A stretch of DNA of 64,000 nucleotides from Dirinaria sp. TL-2023a (taxonomy: Eukaryota). The position numbers were made by a program, and so were the translations under genes. Position 1 is the stretch's first letter; every line of letters begins with the position of its first letter. Shown here piece after piece: positions 22 to 26,748 of this stretch. Where the stretch lies: NCBI GenBank assembly GCA_051941275.1, contig JAVEBF010000006.1, forward strand, positions 1 through 64,000. Reading direction: 5' to 3'. The notes under the pieces were generated by a model. That model had not been told where the DNA came from, made no database searches, and saw nothing but the letters and a program-made list of their open reading frames with translations.

Positions 22-1299
22 ATAAGGACCGGTACTGCTGAAGAGTGGAGAAAGCGAGATAAAGCTGCCGTGAAGTGGTTCGTCGAAGAGGATCACTTCG
101 CACTGACTCATTCGCTTTTAGAAGAGCTCGAAAATTGGCAAAGGACCCATAATCCTCATTTATCCCAAAGCTGACAACCGCTTGAATATGTTGTAAGGGA
201 AGCCGCACGCTCCGGATGTACCGCTATCCTAGAGTTATTTTTGACAAGGTTTCATTCGTCAATGTCAATCATAAACGATGCATGAATGATTGTCGCTTCA
301 CAAGATCATGTAGCCGCGATACAAATCCTACTGAAAGCTGTCAAATGCGACGAGGATGTCCTCATACCCTTGAGTTTGAGTCAGGTCGTCGAAAAGGACA
401 ACATGTCTATGCTGCAGCTGATTTTGGAAAGAGGTCCTCATTCATAGAGAATCATCAACGCATTACATGTCGCCGCCGATGCAGGAAACCTGATCATGAT
501 CAGTCGACTACTTCAGGAGAAAGTCTTTATGACTGAAATATCGCGTTACTGCGATGTTTTCGACATTCCAGCAACGGAACTTGGCAAAATCATCGTCTAC
601 GCTGCACGAGAGAGGCATCTGGCAGTAGTCGACCGATTGCTGCGGCATGGAGGTGGAAAACCCTTGAAAGATGGAGCTTTGGATGCAGGCCTTGGCGCAG
701 CTGCGCGAAATGAACACTTAGCTATGATTGAGCGACTGTTACATTCTGGTGATTCCATGACTCAACAGTCTCAACTAACCATCGCATTTACAAGAGCCGC
801 TGATGCAGGTCAATTATTCATTATTGAGCGATTGCTCCAGCTTGGTGCGAATGTCAATAGACCTTATTTGGGATTGCCATCGGAATCCTCTGATTTGACA
901 GACATCTCTGGTTTGAGAAGTAGGTCTCAATATGCTCTTTATTATGCTGCTCGTGGAGGTCATAAATCTGTGTTAGACTATCTGGTACGTACGGGTGCTA
1001 CTATCGATGCTCTCAATGTTGTTGATGGTGATCGTGTCACGACATTGTATGGTGTCGCTTCCGACGGACATATCGCAGTTATCAAGATCCTCCTCAAGAA
1101 TGATGCAGACGTCTCATCTGATTGTTTTGTCAAATACGATCAGGTCGATCAGCAGAGGACCGGTTTCGTAAGACATAGCATCACTCTGTACAAGGCAGTA
1201 CATCAACAAGTAAAAGGCGATAAGGACAAAAACCCGGATTTTCTCTTCGTTCTCAAATTATTGAAAGACGCCGCTTCGGCTAGGAAAAGGGACACGTAA
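22..1299 (+). pseudogene. 5'-truncated, decayed ankyrin-repeat gene
   Basis: The frame of ORF 496-1299 (ALYYAARGGHKSVLDYLVRTGA, AADAGQLFIIERLLQLGANVN) continues upstream with ankyrin-like sequence (VREAARSGCTAILELFL, ALHVAADAGNL) to the telomere repeat. It is broken by in-frame stops TGA 172-174, TGA 283-285 and TAG 445-447. Confidence 0.8.
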
Positions 1300-1950: not shown

Positions 1951-2221
1951 TTACTCGGATCAAAAGATCATAGTAATAATTCCATATGAAATAATTAGTC
2001 ACTATCTATATATATCCTAGGGACTTATCATGCGTCCGGGTTCCTCAATCGACGCCGCATGACGATGAAGTTCAATGATTTGCAGCGTTTTGCTATTGCT
2101 ATTGCTGAAGCTAAGAGTGAGTCTAAAAATCTGCAGTGTGTCTCCAACTCGAGTGCTTAAATTTGTCGACTTCTTCATGCGATATAGAAATCTCGAATTC
2201 AAGTCTCCTTGCATTCAGTAA

Positions 2222-3984
2222 TCAGGATGTTTTCTTATGCGACGACTCCAACCCTATCATCAACGACTCCCTCTGCCATAGAGCATACGTCTTCTGCTCC
2301 TCAAATATCATGCTATACCCATCAGGAACGCTTAGTCGAAAATTCCAGAGCAGCTTTGCTAGCACGAGTCGCATCTCTGCATAAGCCAAAGTTATGGCTA
2401 TACAGCTGCGCGGCCCAACCGAGAAAGGCTGAACAACCTTCCGGTTATCTCTCGCGAGTGTGCTAGTAACTTGACCTGGATCAGACACGCACGAAGATAC
2501 TACATCATACGGACCCGGCAGCCAGCGCTCTGGAATGAAATCATCAGGAAAAGAAAAGTTATCCTTCGAGCGATAGGCCGCAAATTGAGGAACCCCGACA
2601 AACGTCTGCCAGAATTGCGACATTGAATCAGCCTAGGCGAAGCAAGTGAAACATGGGTACCTACATTTCCTGGAAGAAATTCTCCACAGACAGTGTCTCC
2701 ACCTGGGGGTACGATACGAGGAATCTGCGTCGGTATCGCAGGTGCCATACGGAACCCTTCTTGAAAGACCGCTTGTAAGTAGGGAAGCTTTTCCAACGCA
2801 CTCAGAGTGATGTCGCTCTCGTTGTCGAAGGATGCATGTATTTCCTCGCACAACTTCTCCAGTTTAGGTCTGTTTCGAAGCAAGAGATTCGTCGTTGCTG
2901 TCAAACTGCTCGCAGTGCTCTCCGCTCCTGCCACGATCAGAAGTGCTGAAGTTGCTTCAAGCTCTGGTAGAGTGATTTCCGATGTCTGATTGTTGAGTAA
3001 AACGTAGGAAATGATATCTTTGCGGTCGGTCTGTAACTTTAGGCGACGTTGAAATTTTTCCCTACTCATCTCGAAGTGTCGCTGGGCTTGTATCATGGCC
3101 GCCTTGGGAGTGATAAGATAAATCAAAGGTTTTAATAGTGGATAAAAGTTCGCGCAAGCCTTTAGCGAAGCGGATTTCAGATGACTAAATAGGAATGAAA
3201 CCCATATATGATACGCCTCGTGTTTGAGGCAGTCAAACGGTTCACCGAAACCCAGGTCGCCCTAAGAAGAATACTCGGTCAATCAGGGTCGTCATTCCCC
3301 TAGAAAAACTTACTATTATGTCGAAAGTAGTCCAATTATAATAATCGGAGATATCCACGATTCGATCTTTTGAGGAAATCTTTTCCTTCAACTTATCAAC
3401 GAGCAAGTTTACATACTGCTGTAGTATAGGCTCTTGCGCCATAAGTGCTTTGGAGCTAAAGGCTGCTGAGAGTGGTCTACGCATGCGAGCATGATCATTT
3501 CTAGCAGCATGAATAATCGACCGAGCACCGTTCGGTGAGGGTCGTGCCCATATTGGATTCTTTTGAAACTCTTGGTAGCCTTTCTTGCGAAATCCGTAGA
3601 TATCTTGCCAAGCTGCGGCATCGATGAAAGACAATTCGTTTGGAGCCAGGCGCACTATTGGACCGTATCTGTCATGGAATCTCTTGGTATCGTGAACAAG
3701 ATTACCAATTCTGAGCGATACGACGAATGGTAGTCGGCTCGAAGCCCATAACCTAGGGCCCGGATAACGTGAGAGGGGGTGAAAGTGTAGATTATAGACA
3801 ACGACCTTATCTCGTGTCAGCGTCGGAATTGATGCTACCTGGAGGGCCACTTTGACCATAGAAAAACACATACAGTTATCCAGTATACAATCAAAGCCAC
3901 AAAGCAAAGGGAAAAAACTTGCAGCATGTTGAAGTCATCAGTAGATACTTCTGTAGAAGGTGAGCCTCTTGAGATGAGGATCAT
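2222..3984 (-). CDS. Cytochrome P450, CYP65/Tri11-like, 4 exons
   Basis: N-terminal anchor then YNLHFHPLSRYPGP; I-helix AGAEST, ExxR (EGFR), PERW, heme motif PFSVGPRSCIA. Three canonical introns join the ORF pieces. ATG at 3984 (alternative 3927). Confidence 0.93.
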
Positions 3985-4754
3985 AACTTTCGAGCAGTTT
4001 GAATTACCGACATTCTCGGCTAGCTCCAGTGCCCAAGGGGCTCAGTATACGTCAACGTCTGGGTAACTCTCGGACTATCCGTCTTGATCAGCGTGCTGGT
4101 GAGCCTGAAACGCGAAATGAAGCTGCAGAATGCTGTGCACCGGCACTGCTCTCACCACATCTGGTGTTCAGCTCCGGTCTAGGCGTTACAATCGGTTGGG
4201 TTGATTGAGCCTTAGAGTAAAAAGTGGACCCAATTTCCCGGACCTGGCGATCATCCAGGAAATTTCTGAAGTGCGCTCAGCCGTCCTGGCGCATCCATCA
4301 AGCTGATACTCTCAACGGAAGCTTGTAGACAGCGAAAGAATAACCGATAGCGGCACGGACTGGTGATCAATGACGCTCTCCCTAGTCACGTAGAAGAATA
4401 TGGCATGTTCGAACGGGTCTGTTACGTCAATGCCTACTGCATCTGGGGCAGATCATGGCGCTTCGCATTCTACCAAAGGTCATCCGTGTAAGGCTCAGAT
4501 ATGTCATTAATGCTCACAGACACAAACGGCAATTTCCAAGGCTCGTTCATCAATGATAGTGGTAGGAGTATCTCATGCCACATTCTGAGTTCCGCCCTCC
4601 CCGGAGAATTACGCCCCTTTAGCCCAGTTGCAAGGTCTAGCTATTGCTGACTGGAACCACAAAGTGTCAAAGCTGCGAACCTACAAGTCGCAAATACAAT
4701 GCTAGCCTATAAGCAGCTTCAAGCGAGGTCTGCCTAGCTCATACTAAATTTCTA

Positions 4755-6263
4755 TCAAACAGCTGTGTTTTCCGATCTCAGCTGCTCGGTCGATTCTGTG
4801 GTGCTGGAGGGTAGAGGGCCTAGTCTGATGTCTTGAGTATCGAACGAGGCCATGTCTCTCTTTCCATTGCTAGTAGCGAGAGTTCTGGCTGATCTATTCT
4901 TGTAGGCCTCCCGCATGGACAATTGAGTCCGCGTTGTGCCGGTAGTATCAATACTCTTCTTACCATATAGGAGACTGCGCATGGAGCTTCCCAACTTGGA
5001 GGAATAGACTACGCGACAGAATGACGGCATTGTGAGCATGTTTGCGCAGATGATACCCACACACATCTCAATTGACCTATTCATGTATCGGTAAGGGTTC
5101 CATGAGAGGCAGTAGGCTGCTAGGGCGACTTACTGCCATAGCATTTCAGGGCCTAATGCCCATGTGGAATCTTTGGCAGATAGGGTAGTGACAACGATGG
5201 CTTCGCGTACGCAGGCGGCTGTAAGCGTACTAGGAGGTAGCCAGGTTAGCAATAGTCGGACTAGGCACAGTGGTGAACATACAACAAGCCAACCGCAAAG
5301 ACACTTGTCAGACCAATCTTGCGAGTCAAAGATAGCTGCAGCCTCCATATCATGGGAACTGGTAAGATCAGAATAAAAAAATCCGTTCCAATGTTGAAAC
5401 CTCCGTATGCGGCTTCTAAATGAATACCATTCATGCACTTAGCAGTTTTACCCGGTTGCGGATGCCATGAGTCGTGAAAATTATAACACAGGAAGAGAAT
5501 GAAGAAGAAGCTGATGATGAGATAGACTGAGGTAAGCGCCATGAGACCAAACGTCAGGTATCGGAACATCCTCTTAACTTGGAAAATGGTTAGGTAGAAA
5601 AATAGAATAGACAGTTTGGCGCATAGGATAGCGAGTAAATAAACAAGGTCGGCTATCGACTTCAGCTAGATTTTCAACCACAGTCAGTCGTTCCATCCCA
5701 AGACATAGGATTTCTGCTTACATTGTACAGCTCTAAGAAGTTCTCGACTGGAATGTCCCCTTCCCGAGATTAATTGACACTATTATAGTCGTTCCTGGAA
5801 GGACTTACAGATATGGCGGCCGATGCCATACGTCTTGATGTCTAGGTTCAAAGGTAAGCCATGAATTAACGAAGTGGAACGAAGAGTAGTACTAGTCGTC
5901 TCCAGTATTGCACGTGCTAGGCCAAAGAGCTGTTTCAGAGATATGGTATCAATGGGGAACCCTTCTTAGTGTCAACTACTGACGCCTACCAGTGCAAGGA
6001 TTGAGAAATCTGTTTCTGGTCAGCTCAAATCTGGCATATCGCGCAGGCTAGAACCCACAATCATCCCATGAAAGCTTCTTCCTCTGCCCGAGTAGCTTGG
6101 ACGAGATGCGAAAGCCCAAAAGTACGATGGCGATGGATAAGAGTGTCCATATTGTTGGTATAGTGCTCCAAGCGTTGTTTGGTGGGTCTACATAGTTTAT
6201 CGTTTGCCCTGGAGGAGGAGGAATACCTCCTTCTGAGATGGCAATTGCTCGCCCTGACAGCAT
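4755..6263 (-). CDS. PTH11-like (fungal rhodopsin-domain) membrane protein without CFEM, multi-intron
   Basis: PPPPGQTINYVDPP N-terminus, WDD, GIGRHI, AKLSILFFYLTIF, NIGTDFFILILPVPMIWRLQLSLTRKIGL, SIEMCVGIICA. Confidence 0.88.
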
Positions 6264-6933
6264 CTCTCCAGCAAGGTGCGGCAAGATTGTGTATGGTAGG
6301 ATTTGTTGATTCTGTAATATGATGTTTTAGGGGACGATGAATAGGGCAAACGCGCAAGAATGGAATATTTGCTTGAGAGGTTTTCAGTCGCAACGCTGGG
6401 CAACACCAATATGCTTGAGCGGGCGGTCCATGGAAGGTCTTACTGAAATGGCAGCTTCTCCACGGGCCTGCAAGCTATGAGATCATCATAGAAGCTCCAA
6501 TGATTACCTATCAACCCACCTCCATGGGCGACGCAAAGGCTCAGGTGCATAGAGCATGCATAGTGGGGGCCATGTTTCTATGCACTTCGCTGGTTGCCTT
6601 GTTTGCCTTGCTCAATGCTCCCGAGATAAGGTGATTAGGTACCTTAGTGGTGTGAGGCATTTTTCCAGATTTTCTTGCATGCATAAATCCCCATAATGCG
6701 AGCCGCACCCGCCATCATATGCCCTGTTCCACATCCCGCATGCCAGTTGAGTTTGCTGATCTTTTGTTCGAAACAGGTCGTTAGTAAGGGGGGTATGCAC
6801 ACTGTTTCAAACGGTAATGTTACCCTTTGAAAAAGAAAACGCTGTGAATACAATTCCCCGCCTCATTACGTATTTTCGGCCAAGTCACACTCCACACTCA
6901 ACTCCATTCTGACCAACAACGGAATTTTCAACT

Positions 6934-8674
6934 ATGGATTCTCCAGGTTTGCCACGGTTGCTAATCTACTTTGTCTGCATCTCTGCGATAGTTCTCCTCG
7001 TGAAAGCCTACCACAACCACTTGCGCACCAGCCACCTGAAACGCATGGGTATTTCGCCAAATTTATTCGGTATTGGCACACAAGCAGCACGGTCTGATTT
7101 CTTGAGACACGGCCGCGATTATATCAGAGAAGGATGCGACACTGTAAGTGCTGGAGAATTCAATCTCGTAATGTAGAATCGGGCTGAAAAACTTTGGACG
7201 GCAGGGTAAAGCTTTCATCGTTCAGACCGCCGATATCGAGCGGATAATTCTACCACCAAAATATCTTGAAGAACTCAAAAGCTTTCCTGACGCCAAGCTA
7301 AGCCATCGGCTCTCAATAATTGATCGCCATCTTGGGAAGTACACGAGGCTGGATACCGTAGCAAACAGCCAACTCCATCGCGATGTCTGCGCCGGTCAGC
7401 TATCGAGCCGTCTAGGTGACCGCTATGAGCCTCCATTAGCACGATATTTGCTGACAGAACGGAAGGTGATCTTCTGGGTCCCATGAACGACGAATTTAGC
7501 TATGCCTTGGACAAGAATTTGGGGGCAATTGGCACTCGTTGTAAGCTCTTTTGTACTAGTCATCCAAGTGAAGCCTGATCCACGGTATAGCATTCACTGC
7601 ATACCATACATACAAATTGTGTGTGGAGACTCTGACTCGGACAACTTGCCGAGTGCTCGTCGGACATCCATTGTGTCGAGATACTGAGTGGCTCAAGATG
7701 GCAACGGCATATTCGGGAGATGTGACCGGCCTTTCAGCAGCATTGCGACGATACCATCCTTTGCTCAGACCCTTGGCGTACCCTTTGCTCAAAGCCTCGA
7801 AGAGACTGCACCGAGACTTTGCCGTCGCCAGGGAACATCTATCACCTTTAATCGCCGAGCGCCGGTCAGAGCCAGCAAAGACAGAGAACAAGCCACTAGA
7901 CATACTTCAGTGGCTCCTTGATGGTGCGAAGGCTCCAGATACCGATCCCGAGCAGATAATGCTCAAATGCCTATTCCTCCTATTAGCTTCTGTCCATACC
8001 ACAACCATAACCACCGTTCAAGCACTGTTCGACATTTGTGCAATTCCCGGGCAAGTGGGTTCTCTAAGGGAGGAGCTCCAAGAGTCTCTAGCTATCGAGA
8101 AAGGCTGGACCATGCGAACTGTGAATCGTCTGCGAAAGATGGATAGTCTGCTCCGTGAGTCGCAGAGGATGAACCCAATGGGGCTTGGTACACAGCATTC
8201 TCACTATCGTCGAATATTGTGTATGCTAAATCTCGTTTAGTGGGATTTCACCGGCGGATCAGAGAAGACATAACACTTTCAGACGGCACCTTTTTACCGT
8301 CAGGTTTCCAATTGAGCGTCGCCGCTGATGTTCTAATCAGAGATTCGATGCGATACCCACACCCGGAAGTTTTTGACCCTATGAGATTCTTCGATCCAGA
8401 AAGGACAAAACCTGAAGAAGGAAACCAAGTGGCATTTACCTCTCTCCAAGACAGCCTAGCGTTTGGCTACGGTCGACAAGCTTGTCCTGGGCGATGGTTT
8501 GCTTCTACACAAGTCAAACTATGTCTTGCGCATCTTATCAAAAATTTTGACATTCGGTTTCCGGATGGGCAATCTACTCGTCCACCAAATGTATCTCGAG
8601 ACGAGCGAATGATGCCTGATCCAGAGCAGCAGATTTGCCTTCGTAAGAGGGCACCGAGCGTCTCCAATGAGTAA
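6934..8674 (+). CDS. Cytochrome P450, ent-kaurene oxidase-related clan (CYP68/CYP503/CYP512-like), 5 exons
   Basis: IILPPKYLEELK, LASVHTT I-helix, LRESQRMNP, heme motif FGYGRQACPGRWFA. Canonical introns. Confidence 0.93.
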
Positions 8675-9374
8675 CAAGTGAATTGCGTAATATGCGTGAG
8701 CTTTATTACGATATACGAATCAAGATTTCCATACATCGCATACAACCTTGCCATATTCATATTCATGTGAAATGCGAATTAGAGAGCTGTATATCAGACG
8801 GTCGGGAGAAAACTTCAACATCAGAAACCCGCTACTCGTGCCGCACCTCATTAGTTCCGCTAGACCCCATTAGCTTAGCTGATAAGTGATTGCTTGATAG
8901 CCAATCAATACTCGTCTTAAACCCTCAATGCAAGCTAGTGTTGAAGTCTACGACGTGACTGAACCCTAACGACGTTCCGCTCAAGGACCATTGACTATAT
9001 CCAGAAATTTCCTCACTGCTTGAGGATGGATCATGTAGTGGGAATACTTTGTAAATCGGACGTATATCCATGAGTGTAAAACTTTTAGGTTGATTGTGTA
9101 CCTAGGTGACTTAGAGACCCTAACCCTAAGCCAAATTACTGAGCGCTATCAACCAAGATGGTGAACATATGGTAGACTGATAAGTCCTGTGCCCGGAAAG
9201 TAAATCAATTCTCACTTCAGACAATTAATTCTAAGACAATTGTGATGAACAGCCTAATTGTAGAGACTACTATGATTGGAGACAATTGGATATTGAACTG
9301 CTGGTTGCTTGCTAATACATTGGTGCCAATAACAGCACTCTCACAATTGCTAACAAGATAATCTATCGGGCAAC

Positions 9375-11147
9375 TCACTGCCTTCTTCGAAACAACAGCT
9401 TTGCTTCGGGATTGGGAAAGACGTACTCATGGAGACAAACATTGTCTGGTCGCGTCTCACCGTCTGCAAGCTTGAGATCAAAATCGAGCAGAAGCTGTGC
9501 AATTACCATCTTGACAGTATTAGCCGCGAAAAATCTGCCAGGACAAGCGTATTTCCCATGTCCGAAGTGCATGTTGTTCTTGCTCGTCGTAGCGAATTGG
9601 TGCCTGTTGCCTTCACCAGGTTGGAGACGATTCTCATGGTGACGGAACCCTTGGAATTGGAATGGATCGGGGGTGACTTGCGCGTCAACGACGATGGGGT
9701 AAATTGGCATCATCAGGTGGACATCCTTCGGTAGACACACACCATCACCAAGGGTGAGCGGTTGTTTCACATGGCGTTTGAAGCCCACTACAAACAACTT
9801 TAGACTCTGAATTGAATAGTAAGGGTAGAACATGACTCACATAGGCTAGGTGGATTCAGACGCTGAGACTCTCTCATAAAACTGTCCAATTTTCGCATCT
9901 TGGTGAGACTCGTCTTAGTGAATTGGGCATTCTCTGATGTCATCTCTATGACTTCCTCTCTGAGCGGCTGAATATACTCAGGTCTGGAAGAAACATCGAA
10001 AAGTGTTTGTGTAGCAGCCATGGAGGTCGTGTGGACAGCTGCCAGGGTCAATATCAAAAGTCTGTGGGCAAGCCGATGAGGCGCTCCGTCGTACTCATTC
10101 GCCTCGTCCATCATCCATTGGAGGAAGTCATTAGGTCTCTCCATACCAACGTATCCCGTTGCCGCAGCCTTTCTTCGTGCGTGGATCTCTGGAATTATGA
10201 TGTCTTGTGCTCTTTTAAGGGCTCTGGATACACGCCAGCTATAGGGTATGAACCATGCCGCGACCGGCTTTGCGATATTAGGGAACAAACGCAGAAGAAT
10301 GATAGTGCGAAACGCATTCTCCGTGTAAATTAGTGCAGTTGAAAGCCAATCCTCATCACGACATAAACGAGGGCCTACGAAATGGCGCGCCGCAATATGA
10401 GATACCAGACGCAGGATCAGATGGAAAGCGCCGAACGGCGCAAAGTCCTCTGCTGGCCCATTCATGTTAGCTATGCGATGCTATCTCAAGACAACACGAC
10501 TCACTTTGGGTTCCAGATAGTTCTGAATTCAGCGCTCTCTTGAGTTCTGCCTGGGTTCCGGTAACAAGGTGCGCCAACTTTGGGGTCAGTTTGGTCTGTA
10601 TAACATGTGTATGTAAATGACCTTCCAAGAGGATATTGGTTGTGGAGTACAATCCCTGGAAATTCTGTTCAACGGCGTCAATAGAGGATTAGAACCTCGT
10701 ACATAACTTGTTGCTTACATCGATATTAGCTTGAATAGAGCTAAGCCGGTCCTCCGGTAAGTTTCGTAACTCGTCTACATACTTGTTAGGTAGGATCAGA
10801 ATATCGTGCCCCGATAGTTTGAACAATTTGTCGCCGAACTGATCGGTGTTCAGCTACTTCATTTGAATGCAGTTTTCTTGCGGACTTACTTTGCGGTAAC
10901 CTTCCTGGACATAGGTACTTGCATCCTTGAAAAATTTGTATCGAGCAAACAGGCTCCAATTAGGGCCAACAATTGGGGCATCCACAAGCGTGTTGCCTTT
11001 GGACGGGAACATCTCCGTAAGGCTGAACCACACGAAGGGGAGAATGACGGCGATTGCGATGCTGGCAGGAGTAATATACATAGCTGAGCCCTTCAGAAGC
11101 GTAAAGACCGAATGCATATAGTTGTTACTTGGACTGAGTTGATCCAT
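9375..11147 (-). CDS. Cytochrome P450, CYP503 (ent-kaurene oxidase P450-4)-like, multi-exon
   Basis: YSTTNILLEGHLHTHVIQTKLTPKL, LAAVHTTS, FMRESQRLNPPS, heme motif FGHGKYACPGRFFA. Confidence 0.93.
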
Positions 11148-11250
11148 GGTTATCTGTCTGGCGAGCGGTTCTGGCGACTTTTTCGAACTCTAGTAGTCTA
11201 TGTTTGTATATTTCACAAAGAACATACCTCAGGATCATGAAGAAAAAGGC

Positions 11251-11265
11251 CGGATTTTCGAAAGT
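11251..11265. promoter_or_regulatory. CGGATTTTCGAAAGT motif upstream of the CYP503-like gene
   Basis: About 105 bp upstream of ATG 11147. Differs by one indel from the core of the palindrome at 18013-18040. Confidence 0.35.
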
Positions 11266-12362
11266 AAAGTCGGACAGCTACTGTGACTGCTGTGTCGCAG
11301 AAAGATGTACTGTAACGCCAATCTGCGGTGACAAACTGCATATTTCGCATCGTATCCATAATGATGGTGATCTCAAACCCAATGCCTCGGGGATTCAGGC
11401 TTGAGACCCGCATCTTTCGGACAAAGTAAGCGGCGTAAAATAGACACGCCTCATCAGACACAGGTAGATCGTTCCTCGGCAGTGCAATGCTATGCTCATC
11501 AACAAGTGTCATAGGCTATGATGCTCAGCATTCATGCATCCTGCTCAAGCGATGTCATCGGCCGGAAGATGTGTGGATTGTATCCATCACGGAGAGGAGC
11601 TCGCTAAGGCTGATCTTGCTACGCCTCCATCGAGGGTCTCTGGATCCAGGAGTCTATCAGCTTGATGGCAGGCATCGAGAATCTTAGTGCGAAGTGTGGA
11701 TCGCTCAGAGTCTCATGTGGGTCAAAGTTTGCAAGAGTCCGAGGTTCCGATGGTGGAGTGTCATTTCGGGAATGACCCGCGTGTCCGTACATCTTAGCGT
11801 GGCGCTAGGAAGTTTTCTAGGTACTGCCCGTGTTTGACGTACTGCCTAGCGGGCCATCGTTATTTCGAGCTTGTCATTGGTCTTGGACTCCCTTGAAATT
11901 TCTACAAGGTGGTGTGCTGGCAAGGTCATGACTCCTCGGCAGGTGGCGATCCTTATTGATCGTCCGAGCACGTCGTCGCCGCAAGCAACAATAATGACCA
12001 GCCGCACGCCAAGACAAGGTGTGGCAGCCTTGAGCAATATCTTAACCCACCCACGAAGTCGAGCCTACGAATAAGAAGCAGATCTCGACTTCACGAGCTT
12101 CTAGGCGTTGGAAAGTGACATCAGCTATCATGCACAGCTTCAGCCAACGGAGAAACTTTCAAGGAAGATGCAATCGGGTATGCAGAGAGTCTGAGAGGAC
12201 AAATGCCGGGAGGGCAAAGCACCAGCATCAGTTCCAGGCACACTGTTCGCACTCGCAAATAAGCTTACTACACATAAGATACAGAGCCAACAACGAGTAG
12301 CTGCAATCGCACTTGTTAGTAGTAAGCGACCAGCATCTAATACTTACTAGATCATTGACAAG

Positions 12363-14178
12363 ATGATCACTAAGAGAGCCGAATTTGAGAACATGGACGA
12401 AAGGGTGGAGGATACCGTTTCTATCAGTTGGCAAGGGCCCGATGACAAAAGAAACCCCAAGAATTGGCCAGCCTGGAGGAAAATGGCGACCGTGAGCGTT
12501 GTAAGCGCCATTGGTTTCTTGACGTGAGGCCCTGACACCTACAATAATCGTTGATTAGGACTGATGACCTGCCTTAGACCTTTCTCCTCCTCCGTATCCG
12601 CACCAGCCGTCAATCAGATTCTCGAAGAATTTCATGAACACAACGAGGTCCTCGCTGGCTTCGTGGTCTCTATTTACGTCTTGGGAAACGCAGTAGGGCC
12701 GATGTAAGAAACCGAAATCACGATTCAGTTGGTGATTTTGCAATTGGCTTTCCCAAAGAAGCAGCACTAAAGCTAATCATCTCTAAATCATAGTTTGTTC
12801 GCTCCTGCTTCCGAGATCTGGGGACGGCTTATTGTATTCCATGTCTGCAATGTCACTTTCGTGGCGTTCAGTATTGGTTGCGCTTTATCAAATTCACTTG
12901 GAATGCTCATGGTATTTCGTTTTCTAGCTGGCTGTGCGGGGTCAGGTCCATTGGCGGTTGGTGGTGGTACCATTGGTGACATGGTTTCTGTGGACAGGCG
13001 TGGCAGATACACTGCTGTTTTCACCGTCGGTGCCCTTCTTGGTCCAATGATCGGACCTGCTATAGGAGGTTATATAACCTCTGGAACCTCCTGGAGATGG
13101 ACTTTCTGGATGGTAGTCGTTGCTGTAAGTTTATGTGCTTATACCCTCCCACAAAGAGAGCCATCGTACCCAAACGGAGGCTTGGGGACCTCTGCACCGG
13201 AGCCGAATCCATTTTAACTTTCATTACCCTAGAAGAACATCTGGCTGATTCATGGATCTAGGGAGGAGCAATAACCATTGTATCATTCGTAACTCTGAGA
13301 GAAACTCACGAACCTACAATCCTTAAGAAGGCAAGGCAGTCTTCTCAACAAGGCGTCAGGGCTTCATTGCAACCAGCCAGACTCGGGCAGGACTCTATTG
13401 CAATCGTGTTTGCGAGAGCGATCTTGAGACCAATGAAACTACTCTTCGGAAGTCCCATTACGCTATCTTTGGCAATGTAGTTTAACATCCCCTAACGAAT
13501 TTGGATGAGGGCTAATCATTTTCAAGCTTTCAGGCCCTAGTCTGGGGGTACATATACCTTATGCTCTCAACGTATTCCATGGTGTTCGAAGGCATATACC
13601 AATTCGATACAGGTAATGCAGGTCTAATTGCAATTGCTCAAGGGATCGGCGCCGGTCTAGCATGGGCTACTTTCGCCAAATATAGTGATAAGATCATGCT
13701 TGCCAGAGCTGCGAAACAGAACGCACCGCCCAAACCTGAATCACGATTAGTATTGATGCTCTATGGCGCTCCACTAGGGCCAATCGGTCTCTTCTGGTAT
13801 GGCTGGTCTGCCCAGGCGCACGTCCATTGGATAGTCCCAGCGATTGGGATAGTGCTGCTTGGAGCTGGGTTCCTATTATCCTCTGTAATTTCCCTTCCCA
13901 ATGGTGAAGCTCTTCTAACAATTTCACAGCTTCCGGGTAATATGTACATGATTGATGCTTTCACCAAATACGCGGCATCAGCATTGGCAGCTACCACCTT
14001 CTTGCGCTCGATTGTTGGCGGGCTGATACCTCTGGCAGGACCCGCAATGTTTTCTGCACTTGGTGTAGGTTGGGGGTCGTCACTACTGGCTTTCATTGCT
14101 GCGGTCTTGTGCGTAACGCCGTACTTGCTGATTCGTTTTGGGGAACGACTTAGAGAAAGATATCCGGTTCAACTGTGA
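12363..14178 (+). CDS. MFS drug:H+ antiporter (DHA1 family), multi-exon
   Basis: WQGPDDKRNPKNWPAWRK, APASEIWGR, FRFLAGCAGSGPLAVGGGTIGD, GPMIGPAIGGYI, WRWTFW, PKPESRL, YAASALAA. The start codon is inferred. Confidence 0.92.
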
Positions 14179-14541
14179 AGCTGTCTCTGCGTTGGCATCG
14201 CAGCTGAAAAGTCTGCAAAAATTCAGCGTATAACGAAATGGGTGGGCGCTGGCATTGCAGATTGATGATCGATTAACGCATGCCTTTGGAGGGTGGTACT
14301 AATGGAAATCGTGTCAGCGCAAAAGGTCTGAGATGGCTATCAACTTAGCATACGCTCTCCGTGAACATGAAGAGAACAGTGTAGGAGCTTTTGATAGCGG
14401 GAATTGCTATGCATAGTATCATTGATCATAGAAAGTGCTCTTTCAATTAGTCTATATGCGCGTGCAAGCTTTCCATCACACCCTTTGTTTGCGCAAAAGC
14501 CTTCTGCGACTGCTCACTAGATCAAGAGACTTGCGAGAAGT

Positions 14542-17500
14542 TCAATATCGAGGAGCCCGTTCTTGACTAATGGTTTTCCGGCTCGCTAGGTCTTTCACGG
14601 CGTAGATCTGCCCAAACAAATCTGTTACGTCCACGAATACCTTAACGGTGTTAATCAGTCTGCACTCAATCTCAGGACATCTCTCTAGCGCTGTCATGGC
14701 ATTGTTGATTCCCTCGCGCTCCCAATCAGCTAGATCCATGAGCCTAGCTTTCATTCTAGCTTCGACAGTCATGTTCTCAGGACTCGATCCAGTGTATTTT
14801 GCAGTCTCCCTGCCAGCAGACCCTGCGGTTGCCATAGATTCCCATGCATCGTCGTCGTCATGAAAATCCGGAAAATTGACACAGTTTAGGTTGCCTTCGG
14901 CAAGATCCCGTTGCAGACTACCATAGTCATTATAGAGTCTACACATTCTTGCCAGATGCCCGCAAAGATCTTCCAAGATGTAGCGTTGCTGTAGACTTTG
15001 TAGGAATGGGGCATGATGCAAAGAACTTGCCAGAGCGAGATAGAGCGTGAAAGAATACGGGCAGGAGGTATGAATCGCTGCACTCTTGTGAAGCCAATCG
15101 CGAAAGGAAGGCACAGCTTTTGTGTCTGCAAAGACAATCGGCTGCCTGTTAGCTGTGCTGCTGTTAGTTGCTTGTTTATACAGGAAAAATCTCCTATTCA
15201 ATTGGGCTTGAGTGAGATGCGCATGCAGAAAGACTCTGAGCTCCTTGCGAATCAATGCATGTACGACATCAGAGACACAAACGTCACCAATAACATCGTC
15301 CACGGATTCTACAAAGCGTTGTAGCTGCTGCGCCATAAGGGACGTCGAAGGCACTATAGTAGGATCAAAGCTTCCGACCTGGTGAAAGGTTTTATAGGAG
15401 GCTGTGTTGGGCTTGTCGCTACTCATGTCGGAAATAGCATCGTCCGAAAGATCCAAGTGCTTATCAGCGCTGATCAGGCTGGAATGTTTCGTGGTCCTAT
15501 TGGATGTGTGCGCACCATCCCTTGCATCCTGATTTTCATTTGGAGAGCCAGGCTCCTCGAGAGAACCGTCGATAATCTTTCGCACAACCGCAACATCAGT
15601 ATGGCCACTTTCATCGAGAACAGATTCCATGAATTCATCCACTTGGAAGTTAAGGACAGACAGACGCATCATAGCGAACATCAATCGTTCTGATAGATTG
15701 CAACCATGCATGTTGTTGACCAAGGCCCAGATGAATGGGATCCACAACACATATTTATCCTTAGACACTGCAGCACGGTCGAATATGGGTCGCCGAGTCT
15801 TATTTAATTTCGATAGCATAAGTTGCCCTTCCAGCCAAGAAGAAACAAGCAGCCACCTAGGCTGCGATTTCAACAGAGGAACTTGCTGAACGAGATCGAC
15901 CATCTTGGCCATACTGCTGTATTCAATGCGGAGAACCTTCGAAATGCGATTTTCCTTCAGGGGGGCGGACTTTGGCGCGTGCTGGGCAGCGATGATGTAT
16001 GCTTTAGAGACATACTTGATACCGTATACAACCTTTTCAACCCAGAGAAATTCAGGCTCGCTCAAGCCATCAGTGGCTTTCAAGTATTCGCGACCGCGAA
16101 GTATGGCGGAATGGACTTGTTGATTGAGCATCGACGCCATTGGAAGACTGACTAGATCCACTAGAGCCAATATCGCGTAAGCTGTCTCCTCGCGAGGTCC
16201 TCTGCAACCCCATGAGCCAGCTTTATTCTGCGAGTGCAGTACGCGACATAGGCATCGGAAGGCTACAATAACGATTTGCTCCGCTACCTCCCAGCTAAGG
16301 AGATCCATGTGTCCTCCTTCCCAGTTCCGGAGAAGCGCGACAAATGCCTGGGCGAGGAGCATAATGGAGTAGTATTCTGAGAGGTTCTATGCATTTGTTA
16401 GCCTAGCTACCAATACATCTTGAATGTCCATGAGCCTACCCATTTGTCCTTGACTGATCCACCTGCATTGAACCACTTGGTCACTACAAAAAGAGAAACT
16501 TTCTCTATCGCGGGGAAAGCGTCAGGGTCATTCTTGATGTCAAGTAACAACGCTAGTAGTAGGCTGCAATTGGCACTGAGGCTTTCACTCCCTTCGTTCT
16601 TGTAGGTCTCAAAGTGCGTCTTGGTCTCGAAGTGCCTCCTCAAATCAGAGGAAGAGCCCGTGTAGCCAAGTAAACTCATGGTTATAGAAGCTATTGCACT
16701 GTCATCGACATCTGGCTGAATGCCGTGGCATAATAGACTAGTCAGCTTGAGGTAAACTAATCTCGAATGTAGAGCATACTGAAGCCCACTAGTCCGCCTT
16801 CAGGGATACATTCTCTCAGCACACAGATTTCGCAGCTATCATCTTGTGCGACATGTTCTATTGTCAAGCAGCTAGCTTTGAGCAGGACCGAGGCTACCTG
16901 TTCAGTCAAGAAAAGTCAGCGCTAGAGCTGGAGAAAAGAGACTCCGTTACTCGTACCCATAACAACTCGAAATTCGTAGACGGGTATGCGCTTGGAACTG
17001 CACCTGACCCCATACCAGCGGCGTTACATATCGTCAGGCGCAGGTAGGCTTCCGCGTCATCGTCCCATGTCTTGCACCGCATTAGGTAAGCTGCAGTCGC
17101 CGAAGGTGATGCCATTACGCTGCCATTGATTAACTGATCACGTAAAACGTCGAACGAAAATTCATCATCGCCGTAGAATGCTTCAATAGAGTGCAGAGCC
17201 GTCGAAGGAATCCTATCAAGCTGGCTTATAGGTAGTTTGGCCACCCTCTTGGCCCTTTTCTCGAACAGCCCCTGTTTCCCATGAAATGAAAAATTAATTC
17301 CCTCCTTATTGAGAAGTTCTAGTAAAGCTGGTACTAAAACCTCGAAGCCAACACTGTAATCACTGCTAGACCGATAGTTTTCAAAGTATCTTGAAAGAAA
17401 CGCTTGTCCTTGGGCTAAACACTCATTGGCTCTGCTCTCCAGCCATCTTAGCTGAAGAGGGTCTTTGACATGCTGTGCGATAGCGAACAAGGCAGCCAAG

Positions 17501-17757
17501 GATGAAATTATTGTACCAGACTTGCATTCCGGAGTGTGCTGAGGTGGCCAGTGCCATCCGCCGTCATTCTGTTGAGAATCAACAATGTATTGAAAGCTTG
17601 AGGGGAAGAGCCATTGTCTAGGTGTTGCCGCTGACTTCTTGGACACGCAGGATATCCAGGCCGTATCATAAATGCTACAGGACATAGACCCAACACCATA
17701 GCCACGCTTGTATTCGGAAAGAAGTGTGCTGAGTAGTCTTGTAGCATCTTCAGCCAT
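14542..17757 (-). CDS. Bifunctional class II/class I diterpene synthase (fungal CPS/KS-type), about 1017 aa, 4 exons
   Basis: SIYDTAW, QW motifs QQNDGGW and QNKAGSW, SPSATAAY, class II DVDD (16701-16712), class I DEFME and NDYGSLQRD. Exons 17757-16957, 16897-16780, 16729-16440, 16386-14542. Intron 2 ends in AT, not AG. Confidence 0.93.
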
Positions 17758-20447: not shown

Positions 20448-23400
20448 TCATAAAACGCCAAACACATGCTCTGAATCATGAATCAACGCCGCATCAACCA
20501 CGCACCGACAACAAAGGCTAAAGCCTTCGCAGGTATTGCAAGTATACTGATCCCCATATATATCCTACTCAGTGTCAGCAGTGCATATATTAACACTTTG
20601 TTCCTCACGAGCTGGCTTACCAATTCACACGCATCGTACTTGATCCCGTCCGCATATAAACCTTGCTCTAAATCGAGGGTTTCAACGCCGGCTTCGGTCC
20701 ATAGGATCTTCTGTAACTTATCCTGACCGAAAAACACTGCTACTCCTAAGGGTGTTCTTCCTTGAGAATCTGAAGAATTTAGGTTAGCTCCGGCACTGAT
20801 GAGAAGCTCGGCTTTCTTCACATCTCCTTTACGGGCAGCCCAGTGCAGGGGAGTCCACCCGAAGTTATCCTTGACGTTGTTTGGTGCGCTAGCTTTGAGA
20901 AGAGCTGCAGTATTAGATATAGAGCCACCCAAAACGGCGTGATGGAGAGCAGTATATCCTTGCAGGTCGCGAGCTTCGGTCGAGGCTCCGAGTTTAAGAA
21001 GCGCAGTTATGTGATGAGACTTCTCGCTCCGTATAAGGCGGTGCAGAATGGTTCTCTGCATTGTGTCTACAGTCTCGGTGCTCACGCCACCATCAACAAG
21101 ACATGTAGCGATATCGACACGATCTTGTATCAGAGCAGCGAGAAGAGGACTTCGAAATTGTCCGCCAGGAACATCCAGTAAGGAAGCGAATGGTACTAGG
21201 ATCTTCACTATCGGTAACTGACCGGCGAAGGACGCGACGTGAAGCACATTGCCGAGATTGCCTAATAGATGTGTAACATCAGTGCCGACCTTCATAAGCG
21301 CCTTGAAAGCTACTGTATGCCCACGGTAGGCAGCACGGAACATTGCCTTTGTTATTCCGTGAGGATCATCCCGAATAGCCGCAATGTTCTGTTCTATCAA
21401 CTCCATGTCCCCTTGGATACAAGCACGATTTAATAGAAACTCGAGGATCTCCTGTCTGCAACCAAAATTTTTGCTCGCTAGAGCAAGTAGCGTCTTAGTT
21501 ACCTTAACGTTCGATGCGTAATCGTCAAAGATGTATTTGATCAACTCATATCCGCTCTTTTCATTCTGTGCTGAGAGTTCAAGAATGGCCTGACTCATTG
21601 ACACCTGATTTTTTGAGCAGTTCATGAGTGTCTGAACTATCTGAACACCACATATTTCATTTTTCACGCTTTCCTTAATGACTTCCTCGGTGATGATTGC
21701 AGTTGGATGTTCTATAAGCCGCTTGATTCTGTCTGGGATTGATAGCACTAGGTCGTCCCAAAAATCTTCGGACCCATATTCAATTCTGCAAATAGTCTTG
21801 AGAGCCTCTTCGGTAATTTCAACAGACCAGCCGCTCTGTATAAGAATTAGCAGAGCTTCCAAGCCGTCGGACCCGCCATTTGCAGCAAGCTTTACTGTCT
21901 CCGCAGTATCGATGACTCCGTCCTGTGGATGACAGAGCAAGTAATCTAAGAGCTTTGGATTTGTTGCGGATGCTTGAAGAAGCTCTTGGTTCACAGTAAC
22001 CTGTATCGAATTCTTCATCATAAGCTCGACTATTTGTCGACCACGCCGGAGGTTTGTCGCTGCAACAAGAGCTATCTCCTGACCCCACGTCGAAGGTTGG
22101 CAGTGTTGAAGTAGGAAGCAAAAGATTCTGGCATCAGAATCCCATCTTCTGGAATAAGTGGAGTCCCAATTTCGAGCTGCGGCCAGAAAGGTCTCTTTTG
22201 ATACGGCCACCTTTCCAATGGACAAGATATATTTAACGAGATCATATCCATGATCATTATTGCCTGCGGCCGCGTCAAGTAGATCCTGGTAATTGGTCGG
22301 CTCCGTGCGGGTGAGCAATCCTTTCATTGGCATTCTAGACTCCCACGCTGCTACCTCTTTCCACAATTCCTGCGTGAGGTTTTCTTCGTTCAGATATCGA
22401 ACCAGCACTTCACTTACTAAACGTGCTAGTTCTGACCATCTCGCCTGATCCGGTGGCTGAAGGAGAGACTTGAAGAAGCTTGCTTTGTCCTTGTTACATC
22501 TTTCCAGTAGATAAGTTAGAGCTTCAAGTCCGGTTCCATATGCTGCAGCCAATAGGTGAGCTGAGACTAGGATGATATTTTGTTTCTCGAAGAGTAATCT
22601 TACTACCCTCGTATCAGTTCTCTTATTTTTCAAGATGGCCAGAATGCTATCGTTGCCCATTTGAGTTACACCAGGTAAGATGATTAACATCTTTAGGACT
22701 TCAAATCCATCAAAAGGGTTTAGAGCAGCGGCGAGAAGAATTTTCTCGGTTACTGGGCAACCAGGTGCATTTTGTAGTAGTATCTTTATAGTCTTCCATT
22801 GCTGGCAGTATGCTGCTCTTTCCAGCATAAGCTCGTTAACCACTACTGCCTGAGGCCAAGAAAGAATAGCTTCAAGTAATGACGGATCGAGGTTGGGGTC
22901 AGATACTGCTGTCATAATCGAAGAGTCGGTCACTTCGGCGGTCGGAAATCTTCGACGGATGAAAGCTATCTGAACCGGCTCAACGAAGGAACAGCTGGTA
23001 ATGGCCCGGTAAATAGCTTCTTCTGGGCGCTTGATTTGATTGGGAAAGCTTAAAAGAACTTCAAGAATCTCTGTACCTAGATGAAAGTTCCCCACGGCCG
23101 TCCGTAAAAGTTGCTCTGTAACCGTTGGCAATGGAAAGCGATCGGTTAACATCTTGAGCATACCGACCCCGCAGTACACATTTCCTACCGTCGCCTGAAA
23201 GACATCCTCTCCAATTTCGTCACTCTCGTAACGAGGCAGGAAGACGCTCATTAGGTAGTCGGCGTAAAATAAAGAGCTCGCAGCAGCTTTCAGCAGTCTT
23301 GAGGTCACAGAGTAGCTCCGACCGTTAGAACAAAGAATATCCAAAATTTCGTCAGAGCCCTGGATCTCCTCACTCGCTCGAACCATAAAATCTTCCGTCA

Positions 23401-26400
23401 GTTTAAACTGATCGCAGTGCCCAAGAAACAACCTAAGAATATCTGCCGAACAGTCAATGTTGTGGCAAGCAGCCACCATGGTTTCATCGTCCAATTCGCG
23501 AGTTTGCATACGAGATAGTAGGATTTGTAAACTGTCGGCCTTTTTACACTCACGGCCTACTTTCCGCAGGATGCTGTTTGTTGTTACAAATTGTGGAGCT
23601 TTGGCAAGAATGGTCTCCAACATCCGAACACTGCAGTGCGGATTGAGGGCAGCCGCGCAGACGAGATCATCGTCAATTTTGGCACTGCTGGTTTGGCTCA
23701 TGAGATACTCTATTACCTCTACGTTTGGACTACCTGCGGCTGCACACTGGCAGGCACTGTCGATCCATGTTATAGGATTTGGAAAAGAGCTTCTTAGGCC
23801 AATAAGAACCTGCACTGTTGTCAAATGGCCATAATAAGCAGCAACCTCTATGGGAGTAAAGCCCATGTGATTTTCCATATCAAGAGAATTCGAGTATGTC
23901 CGTTCGATCTGCGGTAAAAGCTCTGGGAACCCATGCGTGCAGATAAAGAATATAGGATGAGGTGGACTGGAAAGACAAGAATCATTCTTTTCGCGAACCC
24001 AGCCGTCCCACGTACGTGATCTAAATAACTCTTCAATCCAGTGAGTGTAGTAAGACTTTTCGCCACCAACACCTAGGAATCGATATAGTAGATATTGAAG
24101 CCGACCACTCAGTCTGCGTTGGTTCGCCTTCGCGCAATGCGTAGGCCAATGCAATAGAGCATACTTGTAAAATTCTGGTAGGAAGATTTTCTTCGAGGCA
24201 TCGTTATCCTCATTAACTGCTACAACAATTCCATTTCGATCCACATAATTGTTGCCATACAGAAGGCATCTGAGACACAATTCAGCAGCGATAGCATTTG
24301 AAGCATCTGCTGAGAATCTTTCATCGTGTTCTAAAAATTCTCTCACGGATAAGTGAGCAAATCTGAATATGCCGGATTCCTCGTCAAAGACTATGAGACT
24401 CTGCGACATTCGAATTATCTGCGACTTCCTCAATCGATCGATTGGGTTATCTTGACAGATGGATGAGGCCTCCTGCATAATCTTGAGAGTCATGGAATCC
24501 TCTGCACAGATTAGCAGCTTCAATGTAGTTTCCATCACGACACGGGTAGTGGATCCAGAGCGTCCAAGCCTTTCAATTATTCTCGAGTAAGTAGCCTCAA
24601 GAGTCGGTGGTAGTTTCTCTAGAGCTTCCTCAACATCCTCGGCACAATATATATAACGAGCGTCACAGATGGCTGCTACTTGAAGCTCAATCCAGCGAAA
24701 CCTAGAATAGTTAGACATGATCTTCGTGGAATACTGATTCACTAGGTGTGTGCTCACATCCCATTTGCTTTTTGGACAAGGACATCTTCGACCTTTGCTT
24801 TGAGTGCATCCCTAGCTTGCCCCATGAGTAAGTGATTGTTAATCTCCTGCACTACGTATCGTCGAATATCATCGGCGTTGTCCTTAGCCTCGATGTAGAG
24901 GTTCTCTACACCACCGAAGTAACCCAATATGTCGGGTTCATTTCTACTAGAAACTAGGAGCTTGACTACGGTCCGTTGAGGCTGAACAAGTCTCTTGAGA
25001 AAGCGAAACATTCTCGCTCGCCTCCGTATGTCTATCTCGTCAAGTGCATCCAGAACTATAGTTACGTGATCGTAGTGATCTCGGATTAGCTCGAGGGCGA
25101 GATTTTCAATTTGATCCAATGTCAAACCAACGGCTCGACTTCCCATTTCCTTGTCCTGCCTATACTTCTTTATTATAGGTGGTTTGATTGGAAGGCCTCG
25201 GATGGGTGACGCAAGCTGCTGAAGGAGACATCTGGTGATACACTCAGGATCTTCACGCTCATGGTGGCCGGAAGTGCGGGAACAGTGAAAGTAAGCGATG
25301 ACTTCGCCCTCATCGAGCAGCGACTCGGGTGCAAGGCGACTGATTACCTTCGCCCTTAACTCAAGTCAGTAATTCCAAAGCAGCTTGATAAGTTGACACA
25401 CATTAAAGAGCTTTTGCCTGTCCCAGCTGTCATCACTAATTAGTTCTACCCAAGTGAACTCTAAGTAAGATGATGCTCAGCTTACCATCTCCGCGAAGCC
25501 ATAAAAGTGACGACTCAGGAGCCATCTTCCATTGTATAAATTCCTTCTTCTCAAAGAACTAGTCCCTAGTTTCAAGCATCACTCGCTTAAAGATATCGAG
25601 ATATGGACTTCGATAATCACTAGCAGAGACCCAGTCCAAGATAGCTTCTCGCTCTTCGCTTCTAAGTCGGTCGTTATACTGTGAAATCAGTTCGCGTGTT
25701 AGGAGGAATTGCTTGTTAGCTGCTTGCTTGAGTGCCGAAGACTCGTATCTCTGGATTTCGGTCTCATGGTTAAAGATGTCTTGAAGAAGTTCTTTCATTC
25801 TGTCAACAGAGAAGGCCCTGTTGGCGAAGCGGCTTGCTGCATCTCGCGAGTAAAATAATTGTACATTAAGTAAGAAGTTTAACAAACTTCGATAGAGCTT
25901 TTCTAGAGATGATTCTAGCCCGAGGCGAAGAGCATCGTCCACAGGGGGCGTGCCGCGGAGATAAACTTCCTCAAAAGCAGCATACCTAAAGATTAAGCGC
26001 GATGAAGATGCTAGACCCTCTAGAATCAAGACATCATGCTCATGACTATTTGTGATTAACTATAACACTGTCATTTCACGTATATCATGAACGTTGGGCT
26101 CTTTGACTTACGAGAAGAGCGAGACGTATCGCTGCCCAGGGTACGCCAAAGTGTAGCGGATCAATTTGGGAAGCGATGTCTCCGACACTGACAAACTTTT
26201 GGACAGACTTGGCTATGGAGCCATAGATATGACCAAGTTTGACAAGTCCACGACTAGTCGATTTCCCTTTTTCATCTTTGCACTTCGCTTGCTTGTGCTC
26301 TGCGGCTCGCAGGACCTCCTGGCATATCTTCAATTCCGAAGATATAACAGACGGCTCGCCGAGGAAAGAGGATCTATCTCTTTCGATGTCGTCCCGTACA

Positions 26401-26748
26401 CGACGTGCTGCAGCCTTCAGTTCGTCAAACTCGGCAGCGACCAGTTCCCGGTCGCAAATATCATCCCATAGACTGTGAGGACTAAAATTAGTAATGAATC
26501 ACTGTAAACACGGCCAAGAAACCACTTCTAAGGCTCCATTATCTTTACCTTCGTCGTACGCAGCCATCCGGCACGGCCAGGCTCGCAGTGGAAGTTTCAG
26601 TCTCCAGGAGTGGTTGGGACGAGGCCTGGGCGTTGAGTGTGACCTTCTCTGGGCTTCTAGACCGCGAGAACCCGAGCTTGTCGAAGATCCTTTTTCGGCG
26701 TAGACCAGACATTGCACTAGTGTCTTGGAATCGATGATGGTACGGCAT
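20448..26748 (-). pseudogene. NLR-like gene: N-terminal helical domain, NACHT, ~31-aa helical repeats, ankyrins, ZZ zinc finger; one premature stop
   Basis: KFVSVGDIASQIDPLHFGVPWAAIR; Walker A WLRGD-AGTGKS split by an intron; Walker B IVLDALDE; VKLLVSSR; FRWIELQ; FAHLSVREFL; ankyrins (GWTPLHWAARKG); last exon YTCNTCEGFSLCCRC...H...HVF. In-frame TAG at 25559-25561. Confidence 0.85.

Follow-up and report, generated by a model that had tools for sequence, protein, structure and literature searches.

A labdane-related diterpenoid gene cluster near a likely telomere of Dirinaria sp. TL-2023a, with a probable block at its first step

The first 64,000 bases of contig C6 (66,592 bp) of Dirinaria sp. 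TL-2023a, hereafter the window, carry a cluster of six genes: three cytochromes P450 (cypA, cypB and cypC), a PTH11-like membrane protein, a major facilitator superfamily (MFS) transporter and a bifunctional diterpene synthase of the copalyl diphosphate synthase/kaurene synthase (CPS/KS) type. We propose that this is a subtelomeric, labdane-related cluster of a recurring type, composed of synthase, P450s, MFS and PTH11 and devoid of its own geranylgeranyl diphosphate (GGPP) synthase, and that its first step is probably blocked by the loss of the acceptor AG of synthase intron 2. We put the probability of this reading at roughly 0.7.

Dirinaria is a lichen-forming genus. The assembly is a metagenome-assembled genome (MAG) of 27.7 Mb in 3105 short contigs, and the NCBI label on the window proteins Q9191_000140-142 reads 'MAG: Dirinaria sp. 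TL-2023a' (Caliciaceae). An initial annotation of the same DNA had described the six genes in the order given in Table 1, spanning 2222–17757, and both the Pfam scan and our spliced models agree with it.

The synthase gene and its second intron

When read through at the conserved position of intron 2, the synthase is 1017 residues long (with an X at the junction). A motif check recovered the DVDD, DEFME and NDYGSLQRDLAE elements named in the initial annotation, and the gene also encodes VGFE, LHS, FETY, DKW, WVEKVVY and PSAYPSTNFELLW. The class I metal motifs are present, DEFME at residue 653 and the NSE motif RLYNDYGSLQRDLAE at residue 886. The class II active-site set (GFE, FExxW, FxT[YF], DKW, WxxKxxY and a Phe 6–7 residues before DxDD) is encoded in full; these definitions were taken from PMC12393454 and PMC12410513, and those of the gibberellin (GA)-clade motifs used below from PMC4617483 and PMC12410513.

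By sequence, the N-terminal half matches Penicillium copalyl diphosphate synthase (E 2e-93, residues 7–537). The predicted structure, modelled on NCBI's 1009-residue form of the protein, showed a beta-gamma fold like that of PvCPS (9q3i; Foldseek E 6e-24, TM 0.88 by target, pLDDT 82). The Pfam Terpene_synth_C match fell below the cut-off (E 0.003), and no C-terminal prenyltransferase domain was found: the PvCPS alignment stops at residue 537 and the window has no GGPP synthase match. The protein is predicted to convert GGPP.

The Phe and the DxDD of the class II site, however, are joined only if intron 2 is cut at a non-AG site. The donor of this intron (16779) is good and its branch site is at 16742; the conserved acceptor position reads AT. 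The AT lies 13 nt from the branch A, within the branch-to-acceptor distance of 9–25 nt seen in 21 other introns. At all five homologous loci examined (C931, C648, C1346 and C199 of the same genome, and the JGI metagenome locus L053) the same intron ends in AG, the acceptors of the last four having been read by eye. In the C931 paralogue, the frame past intron 2 runs into the residues preceding DxDD. The other modelled introns of the cluster are GT–AG in 26 cases out of 26.

We considered 14 splice options, namely 13 GT–AG pairs plus retention, with GC donors and two very short introns left out. Nine of them stop by residue 321. In each of the five that stay in frame, F306 or the leading Asp of DVDD is missing, or the two together, so that none retains F306 together with DVDD and canonical splicing, in the options considered, does not lead to an intact enzyme. 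The NCBI model is one of the in-frame options; it drops F306, and the eight residues missing from it include a Gly-Phe pair conserved in at least 90% of 40 sequences. Of 38 aligned rows, 36 have Phe at the F306 position. This position corresponds to the active-site F304 of PvCPS (PMC12393454) and to F328 of GfCPS-KS from Fusarium; 13 of the 15 fungal enzymes that have been verified carry a Phe there (PMC12410513). The AT acceptor had been overlooked in the initial annotation. Since intron 2 has lost its AG, the first step of the pathway is probably blocked.

The rest of the synthase looks maintained. Its 3-kb coding sequence is otherwise free of stops and frameshifts. Across the whole enzyme, 12 of 154 clade-conserved columns are changed, 2 of them radically, as compared to 18 of 160 (5 radically) in an equally distant relative; in the class II domain, 15 of 147 near-invariant columns are changed, versus 17 of 149 in a Coniocarpon relative. 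Long-standing decay of the synthase was not seen. Because the rest of the gene looks maintained, the lesion would be a recent loss in this individual, a minor allele, or a single-base assembly error. The odds that it is real and inactivating seem to us about even; an error or an allele takes up roughly a third of our expectation, and partial rescue by cryptic or GT–AT splicing the small remainder. GT–AT splicing as normal usage is conceivable but rare: a curated Ganoderma annotation has 18 such sites, or 0.02% (PMC11590231), and a second fungal annotation places GT–AT introns under 'others' (PMC6176087). Repeat-induced point mutation was also considered as a source of damage and rejected, as the TpA/ApT ratio is 0.73 across the cluster, similar to the flanks.

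If the AT reflected a mistake in the assembly, or a mixed thallus with a minor allele, the cluster could be fully active and yield an oxidised, exported diterpenoid. This is a serious possibility, though we would bet against it. The lesion is a single base in an otherwise clean coding sequence, the five other cluster genes are intact, and the assembly is a fragmented one. On the other hand, the 26 canonical introns lie within the same 15 kb, so that local base quality looks good, and both the flanking ankyrin gene (see below) and the C199 paralogue show that genes do decay in this genome. The protein cluster of the synthase has a single member from one contig, so neither base is backed by a second assembly.

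Gene content, predicted pathway and chromosome end

Coordinates are collected in Table 1. The Pfam scan covered 52 open reading frames (ORFs) of the window, and the spliced gene models were built by hand; those of the five genes other than the synthase are all without internal stop. Each of the three P450 genes has two exons that match Pfam P450, and all three proteins have the heme, ExxR and I-helix motifs. The domain matches of the PTH11-like protein and of the transporter (MFS_1) lie at 5264–5665 and 12777–13214, respectively. The CYP65-like and DHA1 labels that the initial annotation gave to cypA and the transporter are putative; the assignments made here are at the level of Pfam P450 and MFS_1. 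The PTH11-like protein has no Cys in its first 100 residues, hence no CFEM domain; one of its exons has 94 matches genome-wide, a large family for a genome of this size. In NCBI, cypB is only 307 residues long (7593–8674), the first three exons of our model being absent there.

Table 1. Features of the window, with strand and the basis of each assignment
Feature	Position	Strand	Basis
Telomere repeat, (TAACCC)x3.3, from base 1 of contig C6	1..20	+	sequence
Ankyrin-repeat gene remnant, outside the cluster	22..1299	+	Pfam Ank; translation
cypA, P450, 492 aa, 4 introns (fourth in frame either way), heme motif FSVGPRSCIA	2222..3927	-	Pfam, model
PTH11-like membrane protein, Fung_rhodopsin domain, 377 aa, 7 introns	4755..6263	-	PF20684 E 3e-32, model
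cypB, P450, 508 aa, related to ent-kaurene-oxidase-named proteins	6934..8674	+	Pfam, model
cypC, P450, 520 aa, same as NCBI model P0121	9375..11147	-	model
MFS transporter, 479 aa, 5 introns	12363..14178	+	PF07690, model
CPS/KS-type bifunctional diterpene synthase, 4 exons	14542..17757	-	sequence matches, motifs, fold
Synthase intron 2, AT at the conserved acceptor position	16730..16779	-	comparison with homologous loci
NACHT-ankyrin gene, far-side neighbour, outside the cluster	20483..26498	-	Pfam NACHT_N, NPHP3_N, Ank

The initial annotation had noted the absence of a GGPP synthase, a desaturase and a regulator, and our searches of the window gave the same picture. A tblastn search of the 64 kb returned no GGPP synthase match, no Zn2Cys6 pattern occurred in the six frames, and no desaturase was found. 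No tailoring enzyme or regulator emerged from 59 further intergenic or flanking ORFs, which gave only DUF7908 and one Big-like match below the cut-off; the scanned window ORFs also include no glutathione S-transferase (GST) gene. A 9-mer upstream of cluster genes at 6797, 12238 and 18139, with three copies in the 64 kb, was considered as a shared promoter element and discarded: it had been chosen post hoc, 16% of 500 shuffles equalled it, and only one of four related contigs carries it.

The earlier view of an uncharacterised labdane-related cluster that would draw GGPP from outside is also supported. PF00348 matches occur on five contigs, which we classed by reading the translations as an FPP (farnesyl diphosphate) synthase (C65), a housekeeping-type, intact-looking GGPP synthase (C1710), a Coq1-type enzyme (C822), a second GGPP synthase (C305) and a degenerate copy (C116). 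The C305 gene belongs to a separate diterpene locus, with a fragment of a class I terpene synthase (PF19086) some 8 kb away.

In the pathway that we envisage, GGPP would be supplied by a synthase encoded elsewhere in the genome. CPS/KS-type enzymes convert GGPP, via a copalyl diphosphate, to labdane-related skeletons (PMC10999977, PMC10512213). Here, to judge from motif and fold, cyclisation to a copalyl diphosphate would take place at DVDD, and the class I site (DEFME/NSE) would then form a tri- or tetracyclic skeleton. The GA-type motifs NHIGVE, xGT(F/Y)PxTxFE, FxTF and WTSKTxY are absent, their places being taken by VGFE, PSAYPSTNFELLW, FETY and WVEKVVY. Because of this absence, and because pimaradienes are the products described in PMC3323652, PMC10999977 and PMC10512213, the skeleton is most likely pimarane-type or related, rather than one of the gibberellin route.

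Judging from the names of its 39–47% identical relatives, cypC might oxidise the C4 methyl towards an acid in the manner of an ent-kaurene oxidase; in gibberellin biosynthesis, P450-4 converts ent-kaurene to its acid (PMC9134587). The other two P450s, cypB and cypA, would insert further oxygens, and the MFS protein would export the product. A PTH11-like gene recurs in clusters of this layout (Chaetomium globosum, Rhytidhysteron rufulum, Aspergillus niger, Trichoderma reesei, L053).

The start of C6 is likely a real telomere, because all 63 exact matches to a telomere 18-mer in the genome fall at the ends of seven contigs, while the reversed control gave none. The C6 tract is the shortest of the seven (the remaining ones being about 52–104 bp). 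The cluster had been described as bounded by the chromosome end; a telomere repeat does occupy base 1, but the ankyrin remnant separates it from the cluster. This remnant is a single frame with three in-frame stops and no ATG ahead of the first one. Starting at the junction with the repeat, its frame is open and runs for 53 codons without ATG, which would fit chromosome healing inside a dead gene. Its closest paralogue in the genome is only 40% identical, a protein-cluster search gave generic ankyrin clusters, and its first 49 residues had no match to the other ankyrin ORF of the window.

No subtelomeric repeat shared by C6 and the six other telomeric contigs was detected by blastn. On those contigs (C11, C99, C198, C251, C943 and C3012) the repeats adjoin unique sequence almost directly, and common sequence is limited to 217 bp (C198/C251) and 78 bp (C11/C3012).

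A terminal deletion, with loss of telomere-side genes (a GGPP synthase, a regulator or others) as the end healed, had been offered as an alternative. The very short repeat tract and the ankyrin frame open at the junction would fit such an event, but we consider it improbable. The non-cluster remnant and about 0.9 kb more stand between cypA and the end, closing the cluster on that side. Of the six other telomeric contigs, all but one, which measures just 1 kb, have ORFs of at least 140 residues within about 2 kb of the repeat. GGPP synthase gave no match on the C931, C648, C1346 and C199 contigs (7–24 kb), and the majority of such clusters in fungi are without one. Given ORFs so close to the repeat on other contigs and GGPP synthases elsewhere in the genome, terminal gene loss is not needed to explain the gene set.

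The surroundings appear NLR (NOD-like receptor)-rich, with NACHT-ankyrin, HET-domain and ankyrin genes at 20483–26498, 29722–32199 and 39143–41854. A DUF7908 fragment (19683–20054) lies between the synthase and the NACHT-ankyrin gene. Further away, at 57854–62579, an MFS gene, a histidine-specific methyltransferase (PF10017) and a phenol-hydroxylase-type FAD monooxygenase could form a second small cluster.

Relatives and paralogues

A search with the last exon of the synthase gave 161 matches, of which 120 were listed; the best named match outside the genome was 44% identical over the full length. The initial annotation had asked whether a high-identity match to a known system exists, and we found none among the matches listed. 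We built a FastTree phylogeny of 61 rows (33 of the top 34, one short row being omitted, together with named and co-located ones; SH (Shimodaira-Hasegawa)-like supports). The synthase falls in a 20-row clade with support 100, together with its paralogue on C931, one protein of a Coniocarpon MAG and 17 metagenomic proteins without a name, which are 37–50% identical to it. By this placement, the clade comprises sequences that are either lichen-labelled or unnamed, and none of its members among the matches listed is a characterised enzyme. A scan of JGI metagenomes with the clade alignment confirmed 2 of 182 candidate stretches (33% and 28% identity), neither of them close. Locus L053 combines a synthase with an FAD oxidase and PTH11-like genes.

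The genome carries five CPS/KS-type synthase loci, C6 included. C931 has an intact-looking synthase, of which NCBI models only the last 599 residues, plus an FAD oxidase and an acyltransferase. The C648 synthase has DLDD and no recognisable DExxE or NSE, so it looks class II-only; it adjoins an MFS gene and two P450s, and cypA is 38% identical to a P450 of this locus. The C1346 synthase is intact-looking, whereas that of C199 contains stops, has lost an internal stretch and is a pseudogene. Hypoxylon rickii is reported to have as many as four labdane clusters in its genome (PMC8403587); by this comparison, five synthase loci appear high, but not startling.

The core exon of cypC is 60–70% identical to P450s of many ascomycetes, several of them on synthase-bearing contigs. 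Six cypC matches sit on contigs of exactly the same size as those of synthase matches, where 0.22 were expected and 1000 offsets gave at most 3, which ties this P450 group, as judged from contig sizes, to diterpene clusters. In contrast, cypB is divergent: among its best 150 matches, one relative is 70–71% identical and the next at most 49%. That relative and a 75% relative of cypC are both on one ENA contig of 16,591 bp, so at least one further organism has probably conserved the cypB–cypC pair.

A further block, at 2126–7628 of the 14-kb contig C617, contains a PTH11-like gene, two ent-kaurene-oxidase-like P450s (one about 50% identical to cypC), and aldo-keto-reductase-like and esterase-like genes. 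The contig has no synthase, and the block may be a sister or orphan tailoring block.

Several observations weigh against our proposal. Many aromatic substitutions in such enzymes are reported to alter the product outcome barely (PMC12410513), and loss of F306 may leave activity. None of the 61 tree rows is a characterised enzyme, which makes the skeleton a guess. None of the 20 closest synthases is on a contig of the same size as that of a cypC match, though no more than 10 of these contigs are as long as 12 kb, and the six size-matched synthases all fall outside the clade of the window synthase. The closeness to published clusters is one of layout: identity to A. nidulans AN3253, the one member of that cluster compared, is just 36% for cypC and 30% for cypB, and the GST is absent here. 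Finally, PTH11-like genes are so common in this genome that one could have come to lie in the cluster by chance.

A split pathway would be a more unusual outcome. In-frame cryptic splicing would give a class II-dead, class I-active enzyme that uses copalyl diphosphate from a paralogue (C648), as with Arthrinium AsCPS/AsPS but from unlinked genes. A two-enzyme fungal route is known (PMC10999977), the five in-frame splice options keep the entire alpha domain, and the motifs of C648 would suit a donor. We nevertheless find it very unlikely: the class II domain has no sign of relaxed selection in the column counts given above, C648 has P450s and an MFS of its own, and the cryptic acceptors are 27–31 nt from the branch A, beyond the range of the 21 introns. 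If true, it would be an unlinked two-locus labdane route caught while arising.

It is an equally long shot that the synthase, as a member of an uncharacterised clade, makes a new skeleton tailored by the divergent cypB; in the boldest form, the lesion would leave a class I-only enzyme that is supplied in trans by C648, or an F306-less splice form would, like the equivalent W369A/F293A variants (PMC12410513), give a hydroxylated intermediate.

Least likely of all is a gibberellin or kaurenoic-acid pathway signalling to the algal partner, since, although two of the P450s have relatives named ent-kaurene oxidase and a 16-hydroxykaurane is reported from Ramalina (PMC6272487), the synthase has the non-GA motifs listed above and neither a GGPP synthase nor a desaturase was found in the window.

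Our preferred reading, a GGPP synthase-less cluster with a probably blocked first step, has a practical side. Cloning the NCBI synthase model would yield a protein without the conserved active-site segment; the intact-looking C931 paralogue is the better first target. With five synthase loci, two of them in one uncharacterised clade, the genome is a fair mining target for linking lichen terpenoid chemistry to genes.

Comparison with known diterpenoid clusters

Like the gibberellin cluster of Fusarium fujikuroi (CPS/KS, GGS2, P450-1 to -4), the Dirinaria cluster has a bifunctional synthase and ent-kaurene-oxidase-like P450s, but it lacks the GA-clade motifs and a clustered GGPP synthase. The gibberellin cluster also includes a desaturase, and the aphidicolin cluster, like ours, has a transporter. 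With the latter (Phoma betae PbGGS, PbACS, PbP450-1 and -2; PMC9134587) ours shares P450s and non-GA motifs (VGFE and YQVDEFME-like), but it has three P450s and no GGPP synthase. The sequences of PbACS, PbP450-1 and PbP450-2 do not figure among the 120 synthase matches listed.

The A. nidulans ent-pimara-8(14),15-diene cluster AN1592-1599 (PMC3323652) and that of Magnaporthe DiTPS2 (PMC10512213) pair a bifunctional synthase with a P450 and represent the likeliest skeleton class. Both carry a GGPP synthase and a regulator, which the Dirinaria cluster does not, and AN1592-1599 also has an HMG-CoA reductase, a short-chain dehydrogenase/reductase and EF1-gamma (PMC3323652). PvCPS/PfCPS (PDB 9q3i, 8v0f) and the Talaromyces labd cluster offer the best solved-structure match for the class II half and likewise three P450s, but these enzymes have a C-terminal prenyltransferase and a partner phosphatase, whereas the C-terminus of the Dirinaria synthase is a predicted class I cyclase domain (PMC10744899). 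In the features compared, our cluster differs from the gibberellin, aphidicolin, AN1592-1599 and labd clusters.

Diterpenoids are known chemically from lichens, with sandaracopimaric acid alongside the 16-hydroxykaurane in Ramalina (PMC6272487), and a 2024 survey of lichen terpenes names diterpenes once in its accessible text (PMC11457338). The literature searched, with subscription journals largely outside its coverage, contained no characterised lichen diterpene synthase. The available parts of studies on A. wentii norditerpenoids, lichen terpenes (PMC11457338), Hypoxylaceae (PMC8403587) and Cladonia metagenomes likewise held no matching characterised cluster. A lichen synthase cluster, from Xanthoria parietina, is already listed in a fungal survey (PMC4617483).

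The gene set had been called unfamiliar, but this did not hold up. That survey finds a GGPP synthase in 19 of its 56 fungal diterpene-synthase regions and three P450s in 12 of them, and the combination of PTH11, MFS, two or three P450s and synthase is a published layout (PMC4617483), which alone would not surprise a specialist. Among predicted clusters, R. rufulum (PTH11, P450, P450, synthase) and Glarea lozoyensis, as well as A. niger and T. reesei, share PTH11, two P450s and a synthase, with no GGPP synthase; the synthases of the first two lack the class I site that ours has, and the clusters of the latter two add a hydrolase, a methyltransferase and a GST (PMC4617483).

The closest counterpart is the predicted type of C. 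globosum (XP_001227319-27) and the A. nidulans AN3252 region, with synthase, MFS, two or three P450s and PTH11 but no GGPP synthase (PMC4617483, PMC3323652); the C. globosum genes match neighbouring genes of A. nidulans. The C. globosum order (P450, two unknowns, P450, PTH11, P450, MFS, GST, synthase) contains a P450-PTH11-P450-MFS-GST-synthase series that is nearly the cypA-PTH11-cypB-cypC-MFS-synthase series of Dirinaria (PMC4617483). The differences are the GST, absent in Dirinaria, and DExxE, which the Dirinaria synthase has and the A. nidulans_a synthase does not. In gene composition, with no claim of orthology, the Dirinaria cluster would accordingly belong to this GGPP synthase-less type with synthase, PTH11, MFS and at least two P450s, as an additional member whose core gene is possibly dead in the individual sequenced.

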